Shown here: positions 4,758 through 54,800 of the stretch, one piece after another
How positions within the stretch are numbered: the stretch's first letter is position 1
Layout: each line of letters opens with the position of its first letter
DNA from: an uncultured bacterium
GTDB taxonomy: Bacteria; Verrucomicrobiota; Verrucomicrobiia; Limisphaerales; UBA11358
Length of the DNA: 64,000 nucleotides
NCBI GenBank assembly: GCA_963708305.1
Contig: CAVPSH010000001.1
Location: 449,820 to 513,819 of the forward strand
Direction: 5' to 3'
Translations under genes and position numbers: made by a program
The notes under the pieces: model-generated
Told to the model about the DNA's origin: nothing
The model's input: only the letters and a program-made list of their open reading frames with translations
Database searches by the model: none

Positions 4758-4827
4758 GGAGCGCCGGTCTCCGACCCGGCGGTTTGGAAAATCAGCCCCT
4801 TCGAGCCGGGTCGGAGACCGGCGCCCC
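4758..4827. repeat. long hairpin repeat with GGAGCGC termini (family B); likely also a terminator for the 4837-5391 gene
   Basis: GGAGCGCCGGTCTCCGACCCGG, a 26-nt loop, then CCGGGTCGGAGACCGGCGCCCC: a 22-bp stem with one mismatch. Confidence 0.7.
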
Positions 4828-5815: not shown

Positions 5816-5856
5816 CAGTCTCGCTATTCCACAATCGCCGGGTCGCCACAAAACTC

Positions 5857-5945
5857 GTAGCCGCCGACGTGCAGTCGGCGCCAACTTCTCGATTTAAAAC
5901 CCCCCGCCAAAAAAAATTTAGCGCGGACTATACGTCCACGGCTAC
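5857..5945. repeat. REPIN doublet (family A), left of RAYT
   Basis: GTAGCCGCCGACgtgcaGTCGGCGCC ... TAGCGCGGACtataCGTCCACGGCTAC: two inverted REP hairpins. About 85 percent identical to 6621-6709 in the same orientation. Confidence 0.8.
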
Positions 5946-5949
5946 GGCG

Positions 5950-6576
5950 TCATTCCATTTCGCGCGGCGGCAGAATGCGTTTCTCAATATCCGGCTTGCG
6001 CACAACAAAGTAATGTTCCCAAAACCACGGCCAGTAACCGGGTTCGAATGGATTCGCCCGCGGATAGCCAGGGATCACCGCGCCGAGAAACGGCCAGTTC
6101 TCCGGTGATTTGACCAAGCCACCTTTGAATGGATTGAGCATGACATAATCCGCGCACGCGACGCTGAATGCGTGTCGTTGCCGTTCTTCGGCGGTGAGCA
6201 CATGGTCATGCGCCTGATGTTGGAATTTCGCCGGCTTGAGAAACGAACCGATTTGAGCGCGAAGAAACTTGATACCGTTGCGCTGGTCGGTGTCGCGATG
6301 GAGCCCCATCCAAACCAGGTGAATGTGGTCGGGCATAAGGCAATAAGCCGGACAAAGCAATCCTTCACGTGCCGCGGTATGAAGCATGATTTCCCGAACA
6401 GTGGCGTGGAAACGATCGGTCAGCCGGCCTTGCTGACGATGGGAAACCGGCATGGTCCAGAACACAACAGCGTCGCCCTGGTAGAATTCGCGCTTCAGCC
6501 TCGGCAGGTAATGAGAAAAATCTGACCGCGGTTTTCGTTCGGAAACGATGGGAGCATCGAAGGGTTCAAGGCTCAC
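5950..6576 (-). CDS. REP-associated tyrosine transposase (RAYT, IS200-like Y1 transposase)
   Basis: 208 aa with a GTG start. It has the HUH motif in CLMPDHIHLVW and the catalytic Tyr region CADYVMLNPFKGGLV, and is flanked by REP hairpins. Confidence 0.8.
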   Translation of the reverse strand: MSLEPFDAPIVSERKPRSDFSHYLPRLKREFYQGDAVVFWTMPVSHRQQGRLTDRFHATVREIMLHTAAREGLLCPAYCLMPDHIHLVWMGLHRDTDQRNGIKFLRAQIGSFLKPAKFQHQAHDHVLTAEERQRHAFSVACADYVMLNPFKGGLVKSPENWPFLGAVIPGYPRANPFEPGYWPWFWEHYFVVRKPDIEKRILPPREME

Positions 6577-6588
6577 GACGGGATTTTG

Positions 6589-6613
6589 GCGCGAACTGAC
6601 GTTCGCGGCTACA
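6589..6613. repeat. single REP hairpin (family A)
   Basis: GCGCGAACTGACGTTCGCGGCTACA resembles the second half of the REPIN doublets. Confidence 0.6.
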
Positions 6614-6620
6614 CTTTTTT

Positions 6621-6709
6621 GTAGCCGCCGACGTTAGTCGGCGCTGACTTCCCGTTTTGAAAAATCCCCGCCCAAATGATTTTAGCGCGGACTGACGTCC
6701 ATGGCTACA
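6621..6709. repeat. REPIN doublet (family A), right of RAYT; supplies the miaB stop codon
   Basis: GTAGCCGCCGACgttaGTCGGCGCTGA ... TAGCGCGGACtgacGTCCATGGCTACA. The miaB TAG (6707-6705) lies inside the terminal GCTACA. Confidence 0.8.
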
Positions 6710-8162
6710 GGTTCACAATCGCCGGGTCGCCGTAAAGAGTGAAGGAGCCGGCGCGGATGATTTTTACGTCCATGAGCCGGCCGCGATGCCGTTCCGAGCC
6801 GTCAAATACCACAATCCGGTTACAACGCGTTCGACCGGTCATTCGCGCCGGGTTTTTCTTGCTCGGCCCTTCCACCAGAATCTGCATCCGCCGCCCGATC
6901 AATGCGCTGTACTTGCGTTTGGCGATTTCGTTGATGACTTCCAACAGGCGCTGGTTGCGTTCCTCGCGAATTTCTTGCGGTACCTGGTCCGGCATTCCGG
7001 CGGCGGGCGTATCGCGGCGCTGCGAGTATTTAAAAATGTACGCCTGGTCAAATTCCACCTCGCGCGCGAGCGACAACGTCTCCTCGAAATCCTTCCCGGT
7101 TTCGCCCGGAAAGCCGACGATGAAGTCGGTACTGACGCCGATTTGAGGTTTGGCAGCACGCAGTTTTTCGATGATGCCAAGGTAACGTTCGCGCGTGTAG
7201 CCGCGGTGCATCAGTTTCAGCACGCGATTGCTGCCGCTCTGGACAGGCAGATGCGCGCTCTCGACGAGTTTCGGCATCCGCGCGTAAGCTTCAATCAAGT
7301 CATCGCCGTAACCCTTTGGATGCGGCGAGGTGAACCGGATGCGTTCCAGTCCCTCGATTTCGTGAACGGCTTCAAGGAGCTGAACAAACGGAGATTTCCT
7401 GGTCGAGGGTCGAGGGTCGAGGGTCGAGGGTTGGAAATTGTTTGGCTCTCGACTCTCGACTCTCGACTCTCGACTGCTTTGGCTGTGTTTTCCGTAACTC
7501 GTCACAATCTGGCCGAGCAGGGTGATTTCCTTCACACCCTGCGCCACCAACTGTCGGCATTCGGCCACAATGTCGGAAATGCCGCGGCTGCGCTCCTCGC
7601 CGCGCGTATAAGGCACAATGCAAAACGTGCAGTATTGATTGCAGCCCTGCATGATGCTGACAAACGCAGTGACCGGTAGCGGCGGTCTATGACCGTCGCC
7701 ATTTCCACCGCCATTTTTCGCACCGTTTCCGTAAAGCAGATGCTCGCGAATGGTCGCTTCGCTCCCCTGCTCTTCCGCCACATCCACGATTTTTTCCGCC
7801 CTCCCGGCGATGATTTCGTCGAGACAATCCGCCGCGCGATGAAATTTCTGCGTGCCAAGAACCAAATCCACGTCTGGCAACAGGTCAATCAATTCCTGTC
7901 CCCGGCTTTGGGCCATGCACCCCATGAACCCGAGGACGACATGGGGACGGCTGCGGCGGATGTCCGCGGCGAGGTTTTCCATTTTCCGGAGCGCCTTTTG
8001 TTCCGCGAGATCGCGCACGCTGCACGTGTTGAGCAGGATCACATCCGCCGCGGTTTCAGACGGCGCGAGCGTGTAGCCCTTGGCCACGAGTTGTGCGGCG
8101 ACGGCTTCGCTGTCGCGCTCATTCATCTGGCAACCGTAGGTTTTGATATAGACGCTCGGCAT
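6705..8162 (-). CDS. miaB: tRNA-i6A37 methylthiotransferase MiaB
   Basis: MPSVYIKTYGCQMNERDSE, the radical-SAM motif CNQYCTFCIVPYTRG, then RIRFTSPHP and a TRAM-like C-terminus. The start is set at 8162 because the longer ORF extension runs through a REP hairpin. Confidence 0.9.
   Translation of the reverse strand: MPSVYIKTYGCQMNERDSEAVAAQLVAKGYTLAPSETAADVILLNTCSVRDLAEQKALRKMENLAADIRRSRPHVVLGFMGCMAQSRGQELIDLLPDVDLVLGTQKFHRAADCLDEIIAGRAEKIVDVAEEQGSEATIREHLLYGNGAKNGGGNGDGHRPPLPVTAFVSIMQGCNQYCTFCIVPYTRGEERSRGISDIVAECRQLVAQGVKEITLLGQIVTSYGKHSQSSRESRVESREPNNFQPSTLDPRPSTRKSPFVQLLEAVHEIEGLERIRFTSPHPKGYGDDLIEAYARMPKLVESAHLPVQSGSNRVLKLMHRGYTRERYLGIIEKLRAAKPQIGVSTDFIVGFPGETGKDFEETLSLAREVEFDQAYIFKYSQRRDTPAAGMPDQVPQEIREERNQRLLEVINEIAKRKYSALIGRRMQILVEGPSKKNPARMTGRTRCNRIVVFDGSERHRGRLMDVKIIRAGSFTLYGDPAIVNL
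7401..7475. repeat. 75-bp heptad-repeat palindrome inside the miaB coding sequence
   Basis: (GGTCGAG)x4, a 15-nt loop, then (CTCTCGA)x4. It translates in frame as SRESRVESREPNNFQPSTLDPRPST. Confidence 0.9.
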
Positions 8163-8230
8163 GGGATGAGAATAACGGCAATTTAGGTCATTCCGCCGGC
8201 CTTGAAAAGGCGGAAAGACGCGGGCATTCC

Positions 8231-8297
8231 GGGAGCGCCGGCATCTTGCCGGCGAGTTCCACTGTCTGAGACACACCGGCAAGATGTCGGCGCTCCC
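8231..8297. repeat. long hairpin repeat with GGAGCGC termini (family B)
   Basis: GGGAGCGCCGGCATCTTGCCGG, a loop, then CCGGCAAGATGTCGGCGCTCCC: a 22-bp stem with one mismatch. It lies upstream of miaB. Confidence 0.7.
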
Positions 8298-15032: not shown

Positions 15033-15112
15033 CTCAATTTTGAGTTTTTAGTTTTGAATTCAATTTGCCGCAACCCACAACTTAAAATTCAAAACTCAAC
15101 CCTCAAAACTCC
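15033..15112. repeat. heptad-type imperfect palindrome in the typA 5' leader
   Basis: TTTTGAGTTTTTAGTTTTGAATT pairs with AATTCAAAACTCAACCCTCAAAACTC. Both arms are built from 7-nt units (GAGTTTT-like). Confidence 0.6.
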
Positions 15113-15285: not shown

Positions 15286-17391
15286 ATGAAACTCGTGAAA
15301 ATCCTGCTTGCGGTTGCGGCTATTAATGACCTTTTCCTTACGGCCATCCCCGGTTTGGCCCAACCATGGATGCCGGGGGTGTCGGCGGCCTCGCCTACGG
15401 AAAACTGGACTTCCGTCGCCTCGGCGGCGGATGGCAAGAAGCTGGTTGCGGCCGCTTCCGGCGCGATTTACGTGTCCACCAACTCGGGAGCCACTTGGAT
15501 GCAGACGACCGCGCCCACCCAAGGGTGGGCTTCAGTCGCTTCGTCAACGGACGGGGTCAAACTGGTGGCGGCGGTCTTGAATATTTATCCCACTCCTTTG
15601 CTTCCGGGGGTCCCCCGTCCCATGGATGGCGCGATTTATGTCTCGACCAACTCGGGGCTCACCTGGACGGCCACCAGTGCGCCAACCAACGGGTGGACAT
15701 CCATCGCTTGCTCCGCTGACGGAACCAGACTGGTGGCAGCGGCAACCGAACCCTATGCGCTCAGCGGCCCGATTTATACCTCGACCGATTCCGGAACCAC
15801 CTGGACTCAGACGAGCGGGCCGAGCAATTACTTGGCTGCCGTCGCCTCGTCGGCCAATGGCACCACATTCGTCGCCGCGACGTCCTACGGCCCGATCTGG
15901 GTTTCGCCAGACTCGGGGACCACCTGGACACAGACCAGCGCCCCCTTGAACTATTGGCACGCTGTCGCCACGTCCGCGGATGGTTCCACCTTCGTGGCCG
16001 CCGTTGGCTACTACAACTCTTCTGCCGGACCGGTTTACATCTCCACCAACTCGGGTGGCACGTGGCTGCAGACCAGTGCACCCTCGAACATGTGGTATTC
16101 CGTCTGCACTTCAGCCGACGGCACCAGGCTGACGGCCGCAAGCCTTGGTGCCATTTATACCTCGGCCAATTCCGGAACCACTTGGACTCAGACGGGCGCG
16201 CCCTATAACAATTGGACTGCGGTTGCCTGCTCCGCCGATGGCACCGGTCTGGTCGCCGCCCCCGAATGGGGACCGCTTTACACTTCGACGAATTCGGGAA
16301 CTTCCTGGTTACCGACCCTGCCCATCCTGTTCTGGCACTCCATCGCCTCCTCCGCCGACGGAAACAACCTCGTTGCCGTGGTGGAAATCGGCCCGATTTG
16401 GACTTCGACGAATGGGGGCGTGACGTGGACCGAAACCAGCGCCGCTCAAAATGTGTGGACGGCCGTCGCCTCCTCGGCGGATGGCACGAAACTGGTCGCC
16501 GTGGCTTTAAGCTCCCTCGGTTATGCCGGTGGGATCTGGACGTCGGATGATTCAGGGGCCACTTGGACGCAATCGGGAGCGCCGACCAAATACTGGTGGG
16601 GCGTTGCTTCGTCGGCAGATGGCGTCAAACTCGTCGCCGTGGTGCAAAACGGCCCGATCTATGTTTCGGCAGATTCGGGGACCACCTGGACATCAACCAG
16701 CGCACCCGGCCTGCAGTGGCGTGGCGTCGCCTCGTCAGCTGACGGAAGCAAGCTGGTGGCGGTCGCCAGTGGCGACCGGATTTACACTTCGACGGATGCC
16801 GGGACCACTTGGAACGCGACCAGCTCGCCGGTCAATAGTTGGAACTGTGTGGCTTCCTCAGCGGACGGTGCCAAACTGGTCGCGGGGGTGCAATATGGCC
16901 CGATTTACACCTCGACCAATTCGGGAGCAAGCTGGACGCTAACGAGCGCACCCGGCGGCGCAGATTGGGCTTCGGTCGCTTCATCGGCGGATGGAACCAA
17001 ATTGGCGGCGGTTGACACCGATAATACGATTTATGTCTCACCAGACTCGGGGGCCACTTGGACCAGCACGGGGGCGCCGAAGGAGAATTGGTATTGCGCC
17101 GCTTCGTCGGCAGATGGCGTCAAACTCGTCGCCGCGGCCATCCCAGGGCTGCTGTACACCCGGCAATCCGTTCCGGCCCCCTTGTTAAACTTGATGTCTT
17201 CCGATAACGGCCTTGTTCTTTCCTGGGTCGTGCCCTCCCTGAGCTTCCGGTTGCAGCAGAATTCCGATCTGACCACATCAAACTGGATCGACGTGACCGG
17301 CGCACCAACCCTCGACACGACTAACCTGCAATACCAGGTGATCATCCCCCAAAACAACGATCAGGGCTTCTATCGCCTCAAAAACCCGTAA
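15286..17391 (+). CDS. secreted BNR/Asp-box-like repeat beta-propeller protein with a conserved C-terminal module
   Basis: Signal peptide MKLVKILLAVAA, then about 13 repeats of W..VASSADG.KLVAA...GPIY.S..SG.TW..T.AP. The C-terminus is LVLSW...FRLQQNSDLTTSNW..V...GFYRLKNP. Confidence 0.7.
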   Translation: MKLVKILLAVAAINDLFLTAIPGLAQPWMPGVSAASPTENWTSVASAADGKKLVAAASGAIYVSTNSGATWMQTTAPTQGWASVASSTDGVKLVAAVLNIYPTPLLPGVPRPMDGAIYVSTNSGLTWTATSAPTNGWTSIACSADGTRLVAAATEPYALSGPIYTSTDSGTTWTQTSGPSNYLAAVASSANGTTFVAATSYGPIWVSPDSGTTWTQTSAPLNYWHAVATSADGSTFVAAVGYYNSSAGPVYISTNSGGTWLQTSAPSNMWYSVCTSADGTRLTAASLGAIYTSANSGTTWTQTGAPYNNWTAVACSADGTGLVAAPEWGPLYTSTNSGTSWLPTLPILFWHSIASSADGNNLVAVVEIGPIWTSTNGGVTWTETSAAQNVWTAVASSADGTKLVAVALSSLGYAGGIWTSDDSGATWTQSGAPTKYWWGVASSADGVKLVAVVQNGPIYVSADSGTTWTSTSAPGLQWRGVASSADGSKLVAVASGDRIYTSTDAGTTWNATSSPVNSWNCVASSADGAKLVAGVQYGPIYTSTNSGASWTLTSAPGGADWASVASSADGTKLAAVDTDNTIYVSPDSGATWTSTGAPKENWYCAASSADGVKLVAAAIPGLLYTRQSVPAPLLNLMSSDNGLVLSWVVPSLSFRLQQNSDLTTSNWIDVTGAPTLDTTNLQYQVIIPQNNDQGFYRLKNP

Positions 17392-20526: not shown

Positions 20527-22674
20527 TCACTGGACAAGCCGCTCACGATAGGGCTGGTGGGCTTTGAAAAGTTGCAGCAACTCCTGGCTCTGGAGCGCCA
20601 GCGCTTGTTGTCCAAGCGCCAGCGCCAATTCGCGGGCTTTTCCCGATGCCGCCACCGCATCTTCAAATCGTCCCGCCTCAGCGTAAGCGGCGGCCAGGGT
20701 ACAAATCAATTGCGGATTCCCGTAATCGGTCAATTCACAAGCCCGTTCAGCCAATGGGACGGCCTGCTGGCCATTGCGAACATGCGGCTGGGGACACGTC
20801 GCCAAATGCCATGCCAGGTTGTTCAAAAAGGATGGATTGTTTGGTTCCAGCTTGATGGCGGCTTGATAGTGCGCGATGGCCTGTTCGAATTGTCCCCGGC
20901 GGAACAAGGCGTTGCCGAGGTTGTTGTAGAGGTTCGGGTTGTGGGGACTGATTTGCAGGGCCTTTTGGTACTGGGCAATCGCCTCGTCCACTTTGTCTTC
21001 CTGGAGCAGTACGTTGCCGAGGTTGCCGTGGGCCTCCACGGAGTCAGGATTGATTTGCAGAACTTTTTGGAATTGGGCCACCGCTTCGTCCACTTTGCCT
21101 TCCTGGAGCAGTGCGCTGCCGAGGTTGTTGCGGGCCTCCGCGTAGTCAGGATTGACTTGCAGCGCCTTTTGGAAATACGGAATCGCCTCACCCACCTTGC
21201 CCCAATGGAGCAGTACATTGCCGACGTTATTCCAGGTGGGCGGGTCTTTGGGATTGATTTGCAGGGCCTTTTGAAATTGGGCCATCGCGTCGTCCACTTT
21301 GCCTTTTTGGGTCAGTATAAAACCGAGGTTGTTGCAGGCCATCCAACAGTCCGGATTCCTGGCCAGGGTGGCGCGCCAGAGTGTTTCGCCGTCCGCATAC
21401 ATGCCACATTGATACCACGTCAATCCGCCCAGAATTAACAGCAGCATTTCGCAAAATACCAGCTCCCCGAGTCGCTCCTTGCTCCTCAAATGGCGGAATA
21501 ATTTGTCAATTCCTGCCACAGCCAACGTGAGCGGACCGATCATGGCCAGGTACTGAAAATGATCGGCCACGAACGAAAAGCGGAACGGATAGACATTGAA
21601 AAATCCGAGCGCCGGGAACAAGGTTCCAACGAAAAAAAGCCATGCTGCTAGCGGTCCGCGGTTCCGGCGCGATAGCAGCCACAACCCCAGCGTGACCAAC
21701 AGTGCCATCGCCGGGAAGAGATATTGCCACCCTATCACCTGGCTGACATGCCAGCGAGGGTACATAAAAATCAAGTCCACCGGCCAGATCAGTTTGCCCA
21801 GGTAGAACCAAATAACGCGTCCGGCAATGAGTGTCCGCTCGATGAAGGAAAAATTATATTCTGAACCGCTGGCGCCAACGAATGCCCACTCTATCCACGC
21901 GGTGCACAAGCCGGCACCCACCCCCGCCACAAAGAACGGAATCAAGGGCAACACATCCTGTTTCCAGGACAATCTTCCACGTTGCCACCAGAAAACCAAC
22001 AACAACGCCGCCGGCAAGGTCGCAATGACGGTCTTGGACAGTAATCCCAACAAGAACATCCCCAAAGCGAAGAAGTAAGGCCTCCAGTTTCTGTTCCGGT
22101 CGAATCTCAAGTAAAGCAATGCTGCGCTTAGATAAAACGCCCCGGACAAGACGTTCTTGATTTCCGAGACCCATGCCACCGACTCCACGCAGACGGGATA
22201 CAGGGCAAAAATGGCCGCCGCCAGCCAGGCACCTGGTACATCCAGCCGGCGCAGAATAGTCCATAGCAGAATGGCATTTAGCGCTTGCAGCAGGACGTTG
22301 GTTAAATGGTAGCCCAGCGGATTCAGTTGCCAAAGGTGATATTCCACCCAGAAACCGGTGAACGCCATCGGGTAGTATTGCGGGGTGGCGCCTGGCACAA
22401 ACCAGATTTGCCAAAGACCTTTCAGAGAGTGCAACGTCAGGTTGCCAGTCACGTAATGATCATCGTCCCAAATGAACCCCGCGTGCCAAATTGGCTGGTA
22501 AGCGAGAATTGTGGCAACTACCAGAAAGAGGCCAAACAGCCACCACCGGTGCGGCGAAGAAGTTAGAAAATCAACAACCTTGTCCGGTCCGTGGCCTCGT
22601 GGAGCGGCCACCTTGGCACCGGCCAGGGTCGAAACGCTTCGCTGGTTCGATTTGGAATCCGGCGCGAATTTCAT
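20527..22674 (-). CDS. polytopic membrane protein with C-terminal TPR repeats (TMTC/PMT-like glycosyltransferase candidate)
   Basis: About 10 TM segments are followed by 7-8 TPR units (AIAHYQAAIKLEPNN and similar). The start is set at MKFAPDSK. Confidence 0.6.
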   Translation of the reverse strand: MKFAPDSKSNQRSVSTLAGAKVAAPRGHGPDKVVDFLTSSPHRWWLFGLFLVVATILAYQPIWHAGFIWDDDHYVTGNLTLHSLKGLWQIWFVPGATPQYYPMAFTGFWVEYHLWQLNPLGYHLTNVLLQALNAILLWTILRRLDVPGAWLAAAIFALYPVCVESVAWVSEIKNVLSGAFYLSAALLYLRFDRNRNWRPYFFALGMFLLGLLSKTVIATLPAALLLVFWWQRGRLSWKQDVLPLIPFFVAGVGAGLCTAWIEWAFVGASGSEYNFSFIERTLIAGRVIWFYLGKLIWPVDLIFMYPRWHVSQVIGWQYLFPAMALLVTLGLWLLSRRNRGPLAAWLFFVGTLFPALGFFNVYPFRFSFVADHFQYLAMIGPLTLAVAGIDKLFRHLRSKERLGELVFCEMLLLILGGLTWYQCGMYADGETLWRATLARNPDCWMACNNLGFILTQKGKVDDAMAQFQKALQINPKDPPTWNNVGNVLLHWGKVGEAIPYFQKALQVNPDYAEARNNLGSALLQEGKVDEAVAQFQKVLQINPDSVEAHGNLGNVLLQEDKVDEAIAQYQKALQISPHNPNLYNNLGNALFRRGQFEQAIAHYQAAIKLEPNNPSFLNNLAWHLATCPQPHVRNGQQAVPLAERACELTDYGNPQLICTLAAAYAEAGRFEDAVAASGKARELALALGQQALALQSQELLQLFKAHQPYRERLVQ

Positions 22675-23880: not shown

Positions 23881-24675
23881 CTAACGGTCTTCAGCACTTA
23901 GCGATCGAACGAACTGAGTGACCTGCAAAACAAGATCCAAGCACTTGCCGTGCCGTGAAATCTGGTTGACCACCGCGCTGCCAACGACAAAGGCATCTGC
24001 CACCGCCGCAACGGCTTTGGCCTGTTCCGGTGTCGAGATGCCAAACCCGACAGCGATGGGTAACTTTGTGTGCTTTCGGATCCTGGCAACTTGCTGTGCC
24101 AGATTGGACGCCACCTGCTTCTGCATCCCCGTAACACCTTCGCGTGAAACGTAATATATGAATCCACTGCCGCGTTTGACGATGAACTCCATCCGGTCCT
24201 CCGGCGTCGTCGGCGCCACCAGATAAATGTGGCAAAGGCCGTTCTTTCTCATCAGCGCCTCATAATTCTCCGATTCCTCGGGCGGCAAATCGAGCACCAG
24301 CAAACCGTCCACGCCTGCCTCGGCTGCGTCCTTGATAAACCGCTCCAAACCCACGCGGTGAATCAGGTTGAAGTAAATGTAAAGAATGATGGGAATTCCC
24401 GAGTGTTTGCGGATGGCGGCAACAGTGGCCAAAACCTTGGGCGGCGTGGTGCCGGATTCCAGGCCGCGTTGCGCCGCCAGTTGGTTTACCAATCCATCGG
24501 CCAGCGGGTCGCTGAACGGCACGCCCAGTTCCAGAATGTCCACACCCGCCTGGTCGAACGCCAATGCCAGCCCGCGCGTGGCCGCCAGATTAGGGTCGCC
24601 CGCCCCGATATAAACGATGAAACCCTTCCGGCCGGCGCGCTTGAGCCGCGCAAAGCATTCCTCAATGCGATTCAT
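23881..24675 (-). CDS. trpA: tryptophan synthase alpha chain
   Basis: 264 aa: MNRIEECF...ELGVPFSDPLADG...YFN...GVDGLLVLDLPPEE...YYVSREGVTG...GFGIS. Confidence 0.9.
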   Translation of the reverse strand: MNRIEECFARLKRAGRKGFIVYIGAGDPNLAATRGLALAFDQAGVDILELGVPFSDPLADGLVNQLAAQRGLESGTTPPKVLATVAAIRKHSGIPIILYIYFNLIHRVGLERFIKDAAEAGVDGLLVLDLPPEESENYEALMRKNGLCHIYLVAPTTPEDRMEFIVKRGSGFIYYVSREGVTGMQKQVASNLAQQVARIRKHTKLPIAVGFGISTPEQAKAVAAVADAFVVGSAVVNQISRHGKCLDLVLQVTQFVRSLSAEDR

Positions 24676-24691
24676 TCGCGCTATTCTATTC

Positions 24692-24796
24692 CGGAGGGAC
24701 AAGTTACACGAGTCCCAAACTACCAAAATTTCGGAGGGACGAGTTACACGAGTCCCTGACTTCAGGATTTTGGGACTCGCATAGCTCGTCCCTCCG
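24692..24796. repeat. three copies of a 25-nt repeat (two direct, one inverted) between trpA and aroC
   Basis: CGGAGGGACAAGTTACACGAGTCCC at 24692 and CGGAGGGACGAGTTACACGAGTCCC at 24732, with an inverted copy GGGACTCGCATAGCTCGTCCCTCCG at 24772. Confidence 0.8.
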
Positions 24797-24849
24797 ACTG
24801 TTCCTCCGATAGATTTGACCCCGCCGCCTTTTTTTTGCATCATTCCCAC

Positions 24850-31698: not shown

Positions 31699-33153
31699 AT
31701 GCAACCATTCGATTATGACGTGGCGATTCTGGGCGGCGGCAGTGCCGGCTATGCGGCAGCCCGTACCGCGGCCAGCGCGGGTTTGAAAACCGTCGTCGTC
31801 GAGGGTGGCGAGAAGGTCGGCGGATTGTGCATCCTGCGCGGTTGCATGCCCACCAAGGCCTTGCTCTACGCCGCGGAAGTGATGCATCTGGCCAGCCACC
31901 CCGAACCGTGGGGCATTCGCGCCGGAAGGGTCGGCTTCGATCTCAAGAAGGTGATGGCGCAAAAAAACAGGCTGATCAAGGATTTTGCCGATCATCGCGT
32001 GAAGCAGCTCAATGCCGGAAAGTTCGAATTCATCCGGGCCAACGCGCGATTTGTGGATGCGCACACAGTGGAATTGAATTCTCTTTGTAGCAGCGGACGT
32101 AAGTCCGCTCATTCTTCAAAATTGGAAGTTGAACAGAGCCGACTGACGTCGGCTGCTACACTCCGATCAAAAAACTTCATCATCGCCACCGGTTCCACCA
32201 TTGCGCCGTCGCCGCTGCCGCAACTCAACGAAACAGGGTTCATCACCAGCGACGATGCGCTGGTGCTCAAGCGGCTGCCGAAGTCGCTGATTGTTCTCGG
32301 CGGCGGCGCGGTGGCGTGCGAGTTTGCCCAGTTTTTCGAGCGCTTCGGAGTCAAGGTCACGCTCATCCAGCGCAGTGAACATATTTTGAAGGAATTTGAT
32401 TCCGATGCGGCAGCGGAGATCGAAAAGGTCTTCCGGAGGGAAGGCATGAAAGTTTTTACCGGCACCAGGCTCGTGGATGCGAAGCGAAAGGGGACACTTA
32501 AGACTGTTGCGTTTGAACACGAAGGGAAAACGGTTGCTGTTTCCGCCGAGGAAATCTTGTTTGCACTCGGGCGCGTGCCCAATACGGCGTCGTTGGATCT
32601 CGAAAACGCCGGCGTGAAAACCGACAACGGGCGCATCATCACGAACGAGCTGATGCAAACCAGCGTGCCGCACATTTTCGCCGGAGGCGATTGCACCGGG
32701 CCGCATGAAATCGTTCACATTGCCGTCCAGCAGGGCGAAATTGCGGCGCACAACATCACCAATCCAAGCGCGCTGCGCCGGATGGATTATCGGTTGCTGA
32801 TTTCGGTTGTGTTCACCGAACCGCAGGTGGCCTTTGTGGGTTTGACGGAGAAGGAGGCAAAAGCGCGCGGTATTCCTTATCTGGCGGCGAGTTATCCGTT
32901 CAACGACCACGGCAAATCACTCATCATGGAGGCCAAGGACGGTTTCGTAAAATTGCTGGCGGATCCGAACTCCGGCGAAATCATCGGCGGCGCCTGTATC
33001 GGTCCGGTGGGCGGCGAACTCATTCACGAGATTGTCGCAGCGATGGCCAAACGCATGACCGTTCACGAACTGGCTGCAATGCCGCATTATCACCCGACGC
33101 TGGCGGAGATCTGGACCTATCCGGCGGAGGAACTGGCGGAGAAAGTCCTGTGA
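31699..33153 (+). CDS. class I pyridine nucleotide-disulfide oxidoreductase (Lpd/MerA-like flavoprotein) carrying a 25-aa REPIN-encoded insert
   Basis: It has the FAD motif DVAILGGGSAGYAAA, the redox disulfide GGLCILRGCMPTK, the NAD motif LIVLGGGAVACEFA, and a C-terminal HYHPTLAE. Confidence 0.85.
   Translation: MQPFDYDVAILGGGSAGYAAARTAASAGLKTVVVEGGEKVGGLCILRGCMPTKALLYAAEVMHLASHPEPWGIRAGRVGFDLKKVMAQKNRLIKDFADHRVKQLNAGKFEFIRANARFVDAHTVELNSLCSSGRKSAHSSKLEVEQSRLTSAATLRSKNFIIATGSTIAPSPLPQLNETGFITSDDALVLKRLPKSLIVLGGGAVACEFAQFFERFGVKVTLIQRSEHILKEFDSDAAAEIEKVFRREGMKVFTGTRLVDAKRKGTLKTVAFEHEGKTVAVSAEEILFALGRVPNTASLDLENAGVKTDNGRIITNELMQTSVPHIFAGGDCTGPHEIVHIAVQQGEIAAHNITNPSALRRMDYRLLISVVFTEPQVAFVGLTEKEAKARGIPYLAASYPFNDHGKSLIMEAKDGFVKLLADPNSGEIIGGACIGPVGGELIHEIVAAMAKRMTVHELAAMPHYHPTLAEIWTYPAEELAEKVL
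32086..32160. repeat. REPIN doublet (family A) inside a coding sequence, in frame
   Basis: TGTAGCAGCGGACgtaaGTCCGCTC ... CAGAGCCGACtgacGTCGGCTGCTACA. It is 75 bp, starts on a codon boundary and translates as CSSGRKSAHSSKLEVEQSRLTSAAT. Confidence 0.9.
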
Positions 33154-35902: not shown

Positions 35903-35976
35903 AGAAGGGCGCATTGGAATGCTACCACCGCACGAGCGGCCGGCCAGCACAAAAAGCGGTAGTGGTCCTGATTTAA

Positions 35977-36047
35977 GGAGCGCGGCTTTTATGCCGCTTC
36001 AGCGTCCATTGCATTGATGCGTTGAAGCGGGCTGAAGCCCGCGCTCC
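35977..36047. repeat. long imperfect hairpin with GGAGCGC termini (family B)
   Basis: GGAGCGCGGCTTTTATGCCGCTTCAGCG ... CGTTGAAGCGGGCTGAAGCCCGCGCTCC. Confidence 0.6.
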
Positions 36048-36173
36048 GGAGACAAATTTGGACACTTCCCAAAAAAGCAGCGGGCTTTTCACGGTTTTAC
36101 CCGCAAAATTGCGGAAAGGGCGGCGGGGATTTCCTGACGCAATGTCCGACCGGCAGTTGCGTTCTGATTTGCC

Positions 36174-41870: not shown

Positions 41871-43995
<2,125 letters not shown>

Positions 43996-46812: not shown

Positions 46813-48282
46813 TCAGGCGTTGTAAGTGCTGGAAGCGGTGGTACCACCGCGGCCGGTCCAGTTGGTATGGAAAAACTCGCCGCGCGGCTTGTCCACGCGC
46901 TCGTAGGTATGCGCGCCGAAATAATCGCGTTGCGCCTGCAATAAATTGGCCGGCAACACGGCGTTGCGGTACTGGTCGTAAAATGCCAGCGCCGTGCCAA
47001 ACGCGGGCACCGGAATGCCCTTTTTGGCGGCCGCGGCCACGACATTGCGCCAGCTTTTCTGGCAACGCTTGATTTCGCCGCGGAAATAATTATCCAGCAG
47101 CAAATTCGTGAGCTTGGCGTTCGTGTCGAAGGCTTCCTTGATTTTGCCCAGGAAACGCGAGCGGATGATGCAACCACCGCGCCACATTAGCGCAATGCCG
47201 CCATAGTTGAGATTCCATTTATGCTCGGCGGCGGCGGCGCGCATGAGCATGTAACCCTGCGCGTAGCTGACGATTTTTGAGGCGTAAAGCGCGTCACGAA
47301 TTTCGGTGATGAACTCTTTTTTCTTCGCGTCTTTTTTGACGACGCTCATTAACGGTTTTGGCCCCTTTAACTTCTTCGCCGCCTTCACCCGGTCGTCCTT
47401 CAACGCAGAAACGCAGCGGGAATAAACCGCCTCGGCAATGAGGGTAATGGGAATGCCCAGGTCCGCGCTGCTCTGCACCGTCCATTTGCCGGTGCCCTTC
47501 TGGCCGGCGGTGTCGAGGATTTTATCCACCAGCGGTGTGCCGTCCGTGTCTTTGTAAGCCAGAATGTCGCGGGTGATTTCGATGAGGTAACTGTCCAGTT
47601 CGCCCGTGTTCCATTCCTTGAAAATCTCGTGCATTTCGGCGGCCGTCAGGCCGAGGCCGTTTTTCAGGATGTTGTAGGCCTCGCAAATCAACTGCATGTC
47701 GCCGTATTCGATGCCGTTATGAACCATCTTGACGTAATGGCCGGCGCCGCCCTCTCCCACCCAATCGCAGCACGGCGTGCCGTCGTCCACTTTCGCGGCG
47801 ATGCCCTGGAAAATATTTTTGACGTGCGGCCACGCGGCGGGCGAACCGCCGGGCATGATGCTCGGACCGTGCCGTGCGCCTTCCTCACCGCCGCTCACGC
47901 CGGTGCCGATGTACAGCAGCCCCTTGCTCTCGACATATTTCGCGCGGCGGTTGGTGTCTTCAAACAACGAATTGCCGCCGTCAATGATGATGTCGCCCGG
48001 TTCCAGCACCGGCAGCAAATGCTCGATGAATTCGTCCACCGCCTGGCCGGCCTTGACCATGAGCATCACCCGGCGCGGCTTTTTGAGCAGCGCGGCCATT
48101 TCCGGGAGCGAATGCGCGCCGATGACCCGGGTGCCTTTGGCAGCGTTGTTGAGGAAGTCGTCCACCTTGGCAACGGTGCGGTTGAAGGCCACCACGGTGA
48201 AGCCGTGGTCGTTCATGTTCAAAATGAGATTCTGGCCCATGACGGCCAGCCCAATCAGTGCAATGTCAGCTTGCGGTTCCAT
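46813..48282 (-). CDS. gnd: 6-phosphogluconate dehydrogenase, decarboxylating
   Basis: IGLAVMGQNLILNM...GTGVSGGEEGAR.GPSIMPGG...GAGHYVKMVHNGIEYGDMQ...GTGKW. Confidence 0.9.
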   Translation of the reverse strand: MEPQADIALIGLAVMGQNLILNMNDHGFTVVAFNRTVAKVDDFLNNAAKGTRVIGAHSLPEMAALLKKPRRVMLMVKAGQAVDEFIEHLLPVLEPGDIIIDGGNSLFEDTNRRAKYVESKGLLYIGTGVSGGEEGARHGPSIMPGGSPAAWPHVKNIFQGIAAKVDDGTPCCDWVGEGGAGHYVKMVHNGIEYGDMQLICEAYNILKNGLGLTAAEMHEIFKEWNTGELDSYLIEITRDILAYKDTDGTPLVDKILDTAGQKGTGKWTVQSSADLGIPITLIAEAVYSRCVSALKDDRVKAAKKLKGPKPLMSVVKKDAKKKEFITEIRDALYASKIVSYAQGYMLMRAAAAEHKWNLNYGGIALMWRGGCIIRSRFLGKIKEAFDTNAKLTNLLLDNYFRGEIKRCQKSWRNVVAAAAKKGIPVPAFGTALAFYDQYRNAVLPANLLQAQRDYFGAHTYERVDKPRGEFFHTNWTGRGGTTASSTYNA

Positions 48283-48564: not shown

Positions 48565-48635
48565 GTAGCAGCCGATGTGAATCGGCTCTGATTTCGCCGG
48601 TGGGAGTATGGAGCGGACTCACGTCCACTGCTACA
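48565..48635. repeat. REPIN doublet (family A)
   Basis: GTAGCAGCCGAtgtgaATCGGCTCTGA ... GAGCGGACtcacGTCCACTGCTACA. Confidence 0.8.
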
Positions 48636-48856: not shown

Positions 48857-49363
48857 TCAGGCGGGCGCGCCCAATTGCAGACGTTTGTCACTTTCCAGCA
48901 TCGTCTTTAGGTTCGCCCAGTTCGCCTCGTTCATGTCGTTGAACGCATTCAGATAAACGGCCACGGCTTCTCCGGGATATTTGGTCAGCAACGTGTCAAT
49001 GGCGGACTTCAATTTGGCGTCCTCCATGGTCGCGGGCAAATCGTCCACGACCCCTTCGTTGTTGGGCAAACCAAGGGCATTGAGAAAATCCACGAGCATC
49101 TGCCGCTGCTTTTTCACGAGCCACACGCGGATCAGCGTAGCGGCAGCGGCTTCGAGCGCCGGCTTGGACAGGGTGGAAATGATTGTCGCATGGCATTGGG
49201 CGCGCGGCTGGCGTTCGAGAAACACCGGGCGCACGTGGCGCGCCTGCGCCACCGCGCCGAGCGTGGCCTTGTAGGTCGGCTTGTCCGATTCATGGGTGAA
49301 ACCGAGGATTTCATTCGCCAGGTTGGGCGACATGAAGCCGAAGAGTTCATGAGAGGTCAGCAT
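48857..49363 (-). CDS. hypothetical protein
   Basis: 168-aa ORF with coding-like composition. I recognise no motif. Confidence 0.5.
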   Translation of the reverse strand: MLTSHELFGFMSPNLANEILGFTHESDKPTYKATLGAVAQARHVRPVFLERQPRAQCHATIISTLSKPALEAAAATLIRVWLVKKQRQMLVDFLNALGLPNNEGVVDDLPATMEDAKLKSAIDTLLTKYPGEAVAVYLNAFNDMNEANWANLKTMLESDKRLQLGAPA

Positions 49364-51840: not shown

Positions 51841-54800
51841 TCATTGCGCGACGACCCGATAGAATCGCTGGCTGGCAACCGGCATCGAGTCAATCAGCGA
51901 AGCCTGGTTCCCGTTGATGTTGATGGTGCCAGCGACCTGTTGCCAGACGCTGTCGGTCAGGTCGTTCTTGCATTCGACCTGATAAGTATGTCCGGAGACG
52001 TAAGGCCAGGTGATGACTGGTCCCTGGCCTGGAGCGCCCAAGGTGACGTTGACGTAAAGGAACGCAAAGGCAAATACGTCGCTGAAATGGTTGAAATCAT
52101 TGGTGGCCAGGTTGGAGGCCCAGCTTGTAAACACGAGCGTCCGGCCGTCGCCGCTAAATACCGGGGTCAGAGAACGATTGTCCCCGCTGGCAGTTCCGGT
52201 CGCGGCGGTGCTTAACAGTGTATTTGAGCCGAACAACCGATCATAGACAATCAACTGGGGAATGCCATTGGTGTTGCCGGCTACCAGGTCAATGGCCGTG
52301 GTGCGATAGGCAATAAACCGACCATCGGGACTGATATCCGGCGAGTCGGAACTTCCGTTGGCCGGTTGGAGTGTATTTGGATTTTCACTGATAAGCAGAT
52401 TGGTTCCCGTTTCAAAATCGTACAGGTAAACGTTGTTGGGAGGAAAAGAGTTGGTTGACATCGCGTACGTGAGGAACCGGCCATCGCCGCTGAATTGTAA
52501 TCCATCGAACGAAGCCTGGAACATTTTGTTCGACTGAATGATCCAGGTGGTATTGGAAGGGACATCCACGCCAAACAGCGTGCCGGATGTACTGGTGGTG
52601 CCTTGCAGACAGGCAAGCCGTTGGCCGTTGGCACTGATCGAGATGGCTGGAAACGCGCCCGGAGCCACCGGCAGACCGTTGGTATAGGTCAGCGTGGCCA
52701 ATGCGGTGCTCCAGATGTACACGTTGACCCCAAAACCTCCCGGAGCAATTCCCCAAAAGGCGACATAACTGCCGTCAGGAGTCATGGCAGCCGCATACAC
52801 GCCAGTTCCAGAACCACCCGACGTCAGCGCGCAGGTTGTTCCGGTTTGCAGGTCGCGCAGGAATAGATTTTCATTACCAGTACCGAAAGAACCCGAAGCG
52901 AGATTTGACGCCTTGCTGTGGAACAAAACATACCTTCCGTTCGCGCTGATCGCGGGTGAAAACGAATCGCCGTTGCCAGGATGAACACCATCGGTGCTGA
53001 CGCTCACCAGAGTTGTCGTTCCGGCCTGCAAATCGCGCACAAATACGTCTTGCGCGTTGTTCGTGCCGTTCGCCATCAGGTCGTCGGCGCTGCTGGTGAA
53101 CGCGACATAACGTCCGTTGCCACTGATGGCCGGGTCAGTGGAAATACTGTCTCCGACGACGCCATTTGTGTTCGCACTCACCAGAACATCCGTGCCGGTC
53201 ATCAAGTCGCGGACAAAAACGTCGCGATAACCGCTCGTATCATTGGGAATTACGTTCCCGGCGTCGCTGAAATACACGATGTAGCGGCCATTGGCACTGA
53301 GCGAATAAGGCGTCACACCGCTGATTCCGCCGCTCGGCGTCACCGAAGGCAGAGACGGATCGTGAACGGAAATCAATTCGGCAGTGCCGGCCGCCAGTTC
53401 GCGCACAAAAACATCACTGTCGGGATTGCCGTCATTCGGCACAATATTGTCATCGCCGCTCTCGAAGGCAATGACGCAGCCGTCGTCACTCAGGCTGGGA
53501 ACGGTGACGGAAATCACTCCGAAACCCGTGCCGTTTGTGTCCGCGTCCAGCAAAATCGTGGCGCCGGCCTGCACGTTTCTGAGATAAACATGGTACGGTC
53601 CATTCAACGGACCCGGAACCAGGCTGGTGCCGTCGCTGAGGAAGGCCACGTACTGCCCATTGGTGCTGACCACCGGCGAGTCGCAAACGCCGCTGGCAGG
53701 CCCGCCGGTGTTCTGGTCCGGGCTGACGAGCGTGTTGCTGCCAGTCTGCGCGTCCCAAAGGTAAACGGCCGTGTTGGTCAGCGAATTGTTTCCAACGGTG
53801 GCAACAAACGCAACGAACCGTCCGTCGGGCGTCATGTCCAGGTTGTGGATTTCCTCAAAGCTTTCGGCGGGCACCGGCGCATTCGAACAAATGACATCGG
53901 TGAAATTGCCCTGAACATGGTAACGGAGAATAATTCCGCGTGGAATGACACCCGCCGGCAGATTGGTGCAGGCTTCAAAGGCGACAAATTGTCCATTGGT
54001 GCTGATACTGAAATTGCAGGAAACCTCGTTGGTGCCGCCGGTCATGGATTGGAAGATGGAGCGGGCATTGGCGCTGGCCCAAATCGTGTTTCCGGCTGTC
54101 AGGTCGCGTATATAAACTTCGCCCGTCGTCGTGACGCCGGGAACCAGATTGGTGGCGGTACTGTAAAAGGCAACGTACCGGCCATCCGGCGTGATTTCCG
54201 GCGTCTCCGAACTACCGGTCGGAGAAATGCTGCTCGTTGAAGTTGCACCGACGCTGACGAGCATCGTCGTGTTCGACTGAAGGTCGCGGACAAAAATATC
54301 TGGAATGCCGTTCGCGTCCCCGGACACGAGGTCGTTGGCGGCGCTGACAAATGTCACATAACGCCCGTCCGGCGTCATGGCCGGATCGCGCGACCCGCCG
54401 CTGCCACTCCACCCGTTCGTGTTGACGCTGACGAGCGTCGTCGTGCCGTTGACCAGGTCGCGGACAAAGATGTCCCCGGCGTTGTTGGTATCGTTGGCGA
54501 GCAGATTGTCGGCGTCGCTCTCGAAAAGCACAAACCGACCGTTGGTGGAAATGCCAAGCGGAAAAGAATTTCCGTTGCCGCCGCCGGTTCCCGTGAGATT
54601 GACACTGATGAGCGTGGTGGTATTGCTGGCGCGATCGCGGAGAAATACGTTCAGATTCAGCAAGGTCGAAGCGGCCATCGGAGCGCCGTTGCTCATCAGC
54701 GCCAGATTGTTTGCCGTGCTGACAAAGAGCACATAACGCCCGTCCGCGCTGACCATCGGCATTTGAGAAGAACCGCCGCCGCCGGCAATGGGCGGCAGGG

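Follow-up and report, generated by a model that had tools for sequence, protein, structure and literature searches.

An in-frame REPIN at a reductase turn that holds many palindrome families in Limisphaerales-like Verrucomicrobiota

We analysed a 64,000-nucleotide stretch of DNA, hereafter the window, from an uncultured bacterium of the Limisphaerales (Verrucomicrobiota; contig CAVPSH010000001.1 of GenBank assembly GCA_963708305.1). A gene for a flavoprotein disulfide reductase in the window contains, in frame, a REPIN, a doublet of two inverted repetitive extragenic palindromic (REP) hairpins. Here we describe the anatomy, reading frame and family of this element and its position in a loop of the enzyme. 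We also document the sharing of its allele with other lineages, the recombination mosaic in which it sits, the covariation of its arms, and a hot spot for several palindrome families at the turn that it occupies. The most likely mechanism, which we hold to be probable, is that the element is a tolerated selfish passenger, inherited and exchanged between lineages as an allele of the gene.

Anatomy, reading frame and host enzyme

The element consists of a left arm (TGTAGCAGCGGACGTAAGTCCGCTC, positions 32086-32110), a 25-nucleotide (nt) spacer (ATTCTTCAAAATTGGAAGTTGAACA) and a right arm (GAGCCGACTGACGTCGGCTGCTACA, positions 32136-32160). The arms are 25 nt each and 88% complementary, and each also forms a small hairpin of its own (GGAC-GTAA-GTCC on the left and CGAC-TGAC-GTCG on the right). 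The second unit has a G/C swap relative to the first, offset inside each unit (pairs 10-46 and 21-35). As single-stranded DNA the 75 nt fold with -22.3 kcal/mol (z = -7.15), a value matched by 0 of 200 shuffled sequences, and as RNA with -37.5 kcal/mol (z = -6.6). Each unit, of about 22 nt, is an imperfect hairpin-forming palindrome in the range of 20-40 bp expected of a REP, and the two inverted units separated by a short spacer make up a REPIN. The copy departs from the extragenic location expected of REPs and sits in codons 130-154 of an intact, conserved open reading frame (ORF). That location is a descriptive and not an exclusive feature of REPs; intragenic REPs that begin with GTAG are documented in an earlier survey (PMC3733652).

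The ORF starts at 31699, and the 387 nt (3 x 129) from there to 32086 make codon 130 the first and codon 154 the last of the element. An earlier sequence-only reading of the window had placed a 75-bp doublet here, starting on a codon boundary and in frame, and this is confirmed. The peptide of the element is CSSGRKSAHSSKLEVEQSRLTSAAT, which is preceded by ...HTVELNSL and followed by LRSKNFIIATGS.

We searched the whole window for members of the same family using the degenerate pattern GTAGCNGCSGACNNNNGTCSGC with at most two mismatches. The pattern matched seven REP units (at 6591, 6621, 6687, 32087, 32138, 48565 and 48613), compared with 0.11 expected. The family is represented in the window by four loci and seven units, and GTAGC stands at the start of 7/7 units. 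REPs lie on both flanks of a gene for a protein similar to REP-associated tyrosine transposases (RAYTs; Table 1). The product of this ORF matches NCBIfam NF047646 ('REP-associated tyrosine transposase') with E = 3e-15 and 56 bits, which is under the curated cut-off of 80. Its best match in the PDB is the E. coli protein TnpA-REP (4er8, E = 2e-6), with the HxH motif (pdHiHlvw) and the Tyr-x-x-x-NP motif (aDYvmlNP) both aligned. A RAYT-like gene bracketed by REPs corresponds to the 'REPtron' layout described for GTAG REPs (PMC3733652), and the enzyme probably mobilises the REPIN family. The assignment of the element to a family of REPIN doublets, made from the sequence alone, is supported; the family is dispersed over the window and associated with the RAYT-like gene.

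The host protein contains the Pfam domains Pyr_redox_2 (E = 2e-62) and Pyr_redox_dim (E = 8e-31) together with the CxxxxC and HxxxxE motifs of class-I pyridine nucleotide-disulfide oxidoreductases, in which C44, C49, H465 and E470 are invariant among 150 sequences. Against TIGR01350, the dihydrolipoyl dehydrogenase (Lpd) equivalog family, it scores 400.1 bits, or 404.8 bits once the insert is removed, in both cases below the cut-off of 408.8, and its substrate is therefore uncertain. Because the protein resembles dihydrolipoyl dehydrogenases and MerA yet falls under the Lpd cut-off, we refer to it as an Lpd/MerA-like flavoprotein disulfide reductase. The insertion had been thought to leave the redox, dinucleotide and HPT interface motifs intact, and the alignments agree: the cysteine pair C44/C49, GGGSAG (residues 12-17), GGGAVA (201-206) and HYHPT...E (463-470) are all invariant or nearly so.

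We built an AlphaFold2 (AF2) model on an alignment of 150 orthologous sequences that included insert-free orthologues. The model has a mean predicted local distance difference test score (pLDDT) of 87.7 and a predicted template modelling score (pTM) of 0.85. Its fold matches Lpd and MerA, with template modelling (TM) scores of 0.87-0.93 against the Lpd structures 6uzi and 1ebd. Only residues 130-151, the insert, have pLDDT < 50. This segment is the tip of a β-hairpin of the flavin adenine dinucleotide (FAD) domain, formed by strands 123-128 and 153-162 right before the IIATGS strand, where a surface hairpin had been expected. The model predicts that the insert is a disordered, solvent-exposed loop of 25 residues at the hairpin tip. 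In distant and many close orthologues the hairpin has 11 residues, VEL-SNGKK-LTA, whereas the window protein reads VEL-NSL-[25 aa]-LRS. The protein is thus longer by 23 residues, and the SNGKK turn of the orthologues is lost; the supposed 25-residue insertion stands as a count of the residues encoded by the element but not as the gain over orthologues. An intein, an intron or a native variable loop was considered and rejected, as the DNA belongs to a dispersed palindrome family and has neither splicing motifs nor a conserved peptide.

The palindrome has been kept while in coding sequence. Both arms are present in 16/16 distinct alleles of the window's type (type A, below) read at the DNA level, and none of these 16 orthologues has the peptide without the palindrome, the combination that would have argued against an insertion. 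We assessed covariation in a gap-free alignment of the arms of 15 of these alleles, with L121 excluded for a 9-nt insertion in its left arm. In this alignment 86.7% of cells pair, and changes on both sides have occurred at 5/25 arm pairs, for example GTAG/CTAC to GTGG/CCAC (pair 4-52) and loop-proximal A-T, G-C and C-G. The covariation score is 0.114, compared with 0.053 in shuffles (reached by 0 of 500) and at most 0.044 in slid registers. In 13 of 15 alleles, the bases of pairs 10-46 and 21-35 do not match each other in the long hairpin but pair locally within each REP unit (G...C / C...G), a sign that conservation acts on the single REP hairpins. The compensatory arm changes show that the palindrome is maintained in the coding context.

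Such conservation is also what one would expect if the insert had been domesticated, with its hairpin (as DNA or mRNA) or its loop serving the host and being kept by host selection. The arms vary less than the gene around them and carry compensatory changes, the RNA hairpin is very stable, and a palindrome of some kind is kept at the turn in most of the clade. However, the occupants of the turn are unrelated in sequence and in length (15 to ~150 nt) and encode unrelated peptides, many orthologues have no insert or only scars, and the model predicts a disordered loop. Moreover, any REPIN that is still recognised by its RAYT or homogenised between its arms should show conserved and covarying arms. 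We consider domestication very unlikely, and the same applies to the functions that might be proposed for it, namely mRNA stability or translation pausing, a protein-protein contact, or a recombination or topology signal.

A shared allele within a recombination mosaic

We collected 120 close homologues in a first protein search and about 110 more in a profile search, and included 80 species-representative genome loci and 80 metagenome loci in the comparison. Orthologous loci (168) were defined by tblastn, independently of gene calling, and aligned with MAFFT. The allele of the window occurs in four independent assemblies (L003, L004, L086 and L087, from NCBI, Logan and two Joint Genome Institute (JGI) samples). 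The closest relative of the window is L085 (protein P0002, from a JGI metagenome), which is syntenic over 21 kb at 93-99% identity. L085 carries an unrelated palindrome, of type B, at the same turn, with ~98% nt identity to the window across the rest of the gene.

The agreement between these sequences changes abruptly around the element. Upstream (gene positions 1-330) L085 matches the window at 325/330 positions (98.5%), whereas L086 (protein P0011, type A) matches it at 219/246 (89%). In the left flank (331-387) the values are 43/57 (75%) for L085 and 56/57 for L086; the element itself (388-462) is replaced in L085 by the unrelated type-B palindrome and is identical at 74/75 positions in L086; and in the right flank (463-490) the values are 17/28 (61%) and 27/28. 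Downstream (491-1017) the match is again with L085, at 516/527 (97.9%) compared with 441/527 (84%) for L086. Across gene 329-489 the window and L086 differ at 2 of 161 positions, whereas their identity elsewhere is 71-97% in 90-nt windows; the differences from L085 span gene 347-483 (window 32045-32181). Among informative sites, those at which the window agrees with L086 and those at which it agrees with L085 stand at 71:0 in this patch (24:0 in the flanks only) and at 23:164 outside it (Fisher p = 1e-43 for the patch and 6e-19 on the flanks alone).

The pattern recurs in another, independent pair: L086 (type A) and L093 (type B) are ~98% identical except at gene 380-491. Because L093 has the left-flank sequence imported by the lineage of the window, the donor was probably an L086/L093-like lineage and the recipient that of the window. 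Flanks do not move with a transposed element, and so the most economical interpretation is that the element was exchanged together with ~40 nt of its left and ~20 nt of its right flank by homologous recombination over a short tract of ~140-160 bp, which would swap cassette alleles. On these sequence comparisons the type-A copy is neither private to this genome nor a recent insertion. The sequence-only reading had implied an insertion into this genome's own gene; instead, the allele and its flanks seem to have arrived by homologous recombination. Many independent insertions, considered because a neighbour-joining tree interleaves the insert types, were dropped as the main explanation after the recombination mosaics had been found.

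The mosaic also bears on the possibility of a fresh transposition in situ, in which a local RAYT would recently have put the REPIN into the gene and its frame would mark a lucky survivor. This would suit the presence of a RAYT-like gene and of other family copies in the same window, and the presence or absence of other palindromes at other sites in the window and L085 speaks for ongoing turnover. It is at odds with the occurrence of this allele, bounded by identical junctions (NSL...LRS), in lineages with a nt identity of no more than 71-92% in the gene, and with the co-variation of element and flanks, which transposition does not carry, at the 24:0 flank sites. The single reading frame and single right junction of all 66 type-A alleles fit one old insertion. 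We therefore regard a fresh transposition as highly improbable.

Comparison of the window with L085 revealed further differences. Their identity is only 81-92% at gene 988-1188 and 1279-1452 (window ~32686-32886 and ~32977-33150) and 98-100% elsewhere in the gene, and these drops suggest further recombination tracts without any palindrome. One palindrome is present only in the window (35957-36072, compared with L085:14251-14257) and another only in L085 (L085:20993-21091, compared with window 42813-42814). At one intergenic site, the elements of the window and L085 are unrelated to each other (window 24675-24832 and L085:3684-3913, the latter with a GTAGGAGACGAC-type doublet). Such element differences between sequences that are 93-99% identical suggest rapid turnover.

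One turn, at least eight palindrome families

An insert at the VEL-SNGKK-LTA turn is present in 216 of 393 distinct orthologues. The inserts fall into type A (peptide CSSGR...SRLTSAAT, the window's type; 66 sequences), type B (SPLPASGHPLPA.RGEGRGEG; 42), type C (WERRLPAG...PAGSRRS; 19), type D (GRADLPVGQDARQRVP; 40), type E (RARHSVRAA...GAQRTDAPY; 9), type F (CSVRPVAEPDRAAGSTLQ; 9), type G (VWSSGFSRPEPPEGGTP; 4) and type H (RLGLRQSSAA...APEGWRTPKPGG; 9), and a further 18 are unclassified. Every insert readable at the DNA level has a strong hairpin or palindrome, and relatives of families A-H were found by blastn-short outside the reductase gene in other loci. A blastn-short search of each insert against its own locus at E <= 1e-3 gave almost no extra copies, but this threshold is too strict for arms of 20-25 nt and missed the known copies in the window. 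Thus, a turn of five codons, SNGKK, holds at least eight palindrome families across Limisphaerales-like Verrucomicrobiota.

None of the 168 tblastn-defined loci (0/168) has a frameshift or stop, and all are intact in one frame. The suggested selection for multiples of three among genic insertions is upheld by this result as survivorship only (168/168 loci in frame). The family has no intrinsic length of 3n, because the distance from GTAGC to GCTAC is 71 nt in the intergenic copy and 73 nt in the genic one. Some alleles have decayed to in-frame scars: the peptide 'SWERRRSQK' of L113 is encoded by GGGAGCGCCGGCGCTCCC, a type C element that has lost its centre and retains the outer arms. A comparison of filled and empty junctions in L040, L042 and L033 was made at ~85% nt identity, which is too divergent for a clean junction.

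Two further kinds of insert were seen in the enzyme. In L001, L019, L120, L128 and L153 the turn holds about four tandem heptanucleotides, (CCGGCAA)n or (TCGGCAA)n, which form no palindrome and are read as PATGNRQPA or SAIGNRQSA. Other lineages have in-frame inserts of 18-44 residues with REP-like peptides (for example GTSRCDVPARKAGG...AQRAVPT and GRSGSPLPADGAHGVTRPT) at other surface loops; these are rarer and palindromic, and lie at residues ~260 (L005/P0019/P0037/P0047 and L007/P0117), ~275 (L048), ~354 (L010 and P0011/P0028/P0105) and ~425 (L055).

The concentration of families at one turn could reflect targeting at the DNA level, with palindromes homing to the site, or to palindromes already resident there, and replacing one another in succession, rather than tolerance by the protein. 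The five-codon turn has at least eight families, whereas the sites at ~260, 275, 354 and 425 have one or two each. Nested inserts occur, for example in P0049 and as the 9-nt insertion inside the left arm of L121; different elements occupy the same intergenic place in the window (24690-24800) and L085 (3730-3870); and the ancestral turn, AGC AAC/AGC GGC AAA, resembles the AGC AGC GGA C of the element. However, the junctions vary by family within the turn (after VEL, VEL plus one codon or VEL plus three codons), and the four family-A copies in the window have no shared target motif and lack the target-site duplication, or any flanking direct repeat, expected of a miniature inverted-repeat transposable element. 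In addition, the sole replacement that could be reconstructed is by homologous recombination and not by transposition. DNA-level targeting is therefore possible but doubtful, and we favour a selective filter, in which the hairpin tip may simply be the most permissive place for insertions in palindrome-saturated genomes. In the window alone, palindromes of at least five other families are present, and miaB contains a further genic insert in frame.

We propose the following account of the element as a tolerated passenger. It belongs to a REPIN family of GTAG-tagged hairpins, which the RAYT-like transposase gene 26 kb upstream would serve, and, placed at the exposed tip of the FAD-domain hairpin, would be translated as a disordered 25-residue loop that the enzyme tolerates. 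We infer that the insert is translated and not removed, and that the loop is functionally neutral; the element would then be a selfish passenger and not a new functional module, and only frame-keeping copies would survive in the gene. An older element-bearing allele would have been pasted into the window lineage by a homologous-recombination tract of ~140-160 bp, displacing an allele with a different palindrome at the same turn. The five-codon turn would be a permissive landing pad colonised by at least eight palindromic families across the clade, whose alleles are shuffled between lineages and whose inserts shrink to short scars as internal stretches are deleted in frame.

Several points weigh against this account. 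Translation of the insert and activity of the enzyme are predictions, the hot spot may be due to either a selective filter or DNA-level targeting, and the conservation and covariation of the arms could also mean a host function of the hairpin. The RAYT match is below the curated NCBIfam cut-off, and several positions distinguish the REPs that flank the RAYT-like gene (GTAGCCGCCGAC...) from the copy in the reductase gene (GTAGCAGCGGAC...). Finally, all compared sequences are metagenome assemblies, and strain mixing during assembly or polishing could in principle yield a mosaic of ~150 bp. An assembly or polishing chimera, with the insert or the mosaic as an artefact of mixed-strain assembly, is also suggested by the size of the patch, which is about that of a short read. 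It is countered by the identical allele in the four independent assemblies and by the mosaic in two independent pairs, and it would still need both alleles to be present in closely related genomes. An artefact, the other challenge to the insertion anticipated from the sequence, is in our view extremely unlikely.

A more far-reaching interpretation is that the turn is a population-level 'cassette' site, at which many families compete in an essential-type enzyme and alleles spread by gene-conversion tracts of ~110-160 bp that co-convert the flanks. The type-A allele is found in two different type-B backgrounds (the window and L086), which is the expected product of biased cassette spread. We offer this as a speculation and consider it unlikely.

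Other palindromes in the window and related systems

The coordinates of the reductase gene, the element and its relatives are collected in Table 1.

Table 1. The reductase gene, its REPIN and recombinant patch, and related features in the window (window positions)
Feature	Position	Strand	Remarks
Host gene, class-I pyridine nucleotide-disulfide oxidoreductase (Lpd/MerA-like flavoprotein disulfide reductase)	31699..33153	+	484 aa
REPIN, doublet of two inverted REP hairpins	32086..32160	+	75 bp; read as residues 130-154
REP unit 1, GTAGCAGCGGACGTAAGTCCGC	32087..32108	+	5' GTAG tag; local hairpin GGAC/GTCC; 0 mismatches to family pattern
REP unit 2, GTAGCAGCCGACGTCAGTCGGC, inverted	32138..32159	-	Local hairpin CGAC/GTCG; 0 mismatches to family pattern
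Probable recombinant patch, element and flanks	32027..32187		Gene 329-489; 98.8% identical to distant relative L086; divergent or unrelated in L085
Intergenic copy of REPIN family	48565..48635		71 nt; between gnd-like ORF 46813-48282 and ORF 48857-49363
RAYT-like gene	5950..6576	-	Presumed mobilising enzyme of the family
Three-unit REP cluster, 5' side of RAYT-like gene	6586..6710		6591-6612 (-), 6621-6642 (+), 6687-6708 (-)
REP doublet of same super-family, 3' side of RAYT-like gene	5856..5946		GTAGCCGCCGAC...GTCCACGGCTAC

An 18-bp direct repeat, CACAATCGCCGGGTCGCC, encloses the RAYT-like gene together with its REPs (~5848-6713); the copies of the repeat lie at 5830-5847 and 6714-6731, and the right one is the 3' end of miaB. 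The whole REPtron looks as if it had been placed in a target that was duplicated, an arrangement not expected of a Y1 transposase. The miaB ORF (6705-8282) contains the second in-frame genic palindrome, at ~7403-7473 on the minus strand, which belongs to another family than the reductase insert. Its arms are heptamer tandem repeats, (TCGAGAG)4 ... (CCCTCGA)4, and it encodes roughly SRESRVESREPNNFQPSTLDPRPSTR inside the radical-SAM part of MiaB, as judged by a Pfam match.

At least five further palindromic families, apparently intergenic, are present at 4758-4827, 8231-8297, 15038-15108, 24692-24797 and 35977-36047. The palindrome at 8231-8297 (GGGAGCGCCGGC...) matches type C, the family found in frame in reductase orthologues, and that at 35977-36047 resembles type G. 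The window also has long in-gene tandem or dispersed direct repeats at 15400-17140, 20900-21330 and 52750-54750, with periods of ~123 nt, 102 nt and ~180 nt; these probably encode repeat-domain proteins (β-propeller- or tetratricopeptide-repeat-like) and are unrelated to the REPIN.

A genic, in-frame copy had been called unusual, and it is less so than supposed. In-frame GTAG REPs, mostly dimers that add 20-30 residues, were catalogued in 2013 (Di Nocera et al., BMC Genomics 14:522; PMC3733652), with the maximum in the verrucomicrobium Opitutus terrae, and the genes listed there include 2-oxoacid dehydrogenase E2 subunits. The elements described in that study are like the present one in being GTAG-headed, often inverted dimers, in frame in conserved genes of the same phylum, and in being tied to REP-flanked RAYT genes ('REPtrons'). 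They differ in family sequence and in host, which is Opitutales there and Limisphaerales-like here, and they were catalogued genome by genome. The consulted portions of the paper contain no description of one site with many families, of allele exchange by recombination or of covariation of the arms in a coding context. The in-frame REPIN is therefore of a known kind and not an exception to the rule that REPs are extragenic.

The REPIN-RAYT systems of Pseudomonas and E. coli (Bertels & Rainey 2011, PMC3116915; 4er8) share with the present one the inverted-REP doublet of ~70-110 bp, a single-copy HUH/Y1 RAYT flanked by REPs, and long-lived, vertically inherited positions. However, classical REPINs were described as extragenic, whereas this copy lies within coding sequence, and the RAYT here is distant (E = 2e-6 to 4er8). 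Rickettsia palindromic elements (RPEs; Ogata et al. 2000/2002, as cited in PMC10969869 and PMC3733652) are likewise in-frame palindromes in many unrelated housekeeping genes at positions compatible with the fold, and according to the same sources are regarded as selfish DNA able to add peptide segments. The present element is also inserted in frame in a conserved gene, at a fold-compatible surface position. In contrast, RPE-1 has ~100-150 bp rather than 75 bp, encodes a conserved peptide, has no RAYT and lives in reduced, obligately intracellular hosts. The relation to RPEs may best be taken as one of analogy and not of membership, with size and host phylum setting the present element apart. 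The coding palindromes of nematomorph mitochondria (PMC6649704) are long inverted repeats in frame in conserved genes with both arms translated. They reside in eukaryotic organelles, reach 284 bp and have no associated transposase, and are analogues only.

In the limited literature searched, where absence is no proof of novelty, we found no multi-family occupation of a codon-scale site, no direct evidence of recombination between element alleles and no covariation of arms in a translated copy. The element described here is a well-anchored case of a REPIN that has apparently long been translated and yet, as its compensatory arm changes show, keeps its DNA palindrome. At a practical level, such inserts depress profile scores and inflate the apparent protein diversity of metagenome-assembled genomes of Verrucomicrobiota.

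More broadly, a single β-turn presents an allelic series that comprises the empty state, at least eight families, nested forms and scars. This series is a natural experiment on how protein structure filters selfish palindromes, on the lengthening of loops, and on the movement of REPINs by recombination as compared with transposition. Loop lengthening of this kind bears on the idea of Claverie and Ogata that proteins innovate through palindrome insertion. If the turn does act as a cassette site, it would give REPINs a homing-like horizontal route that has no need of transposition.

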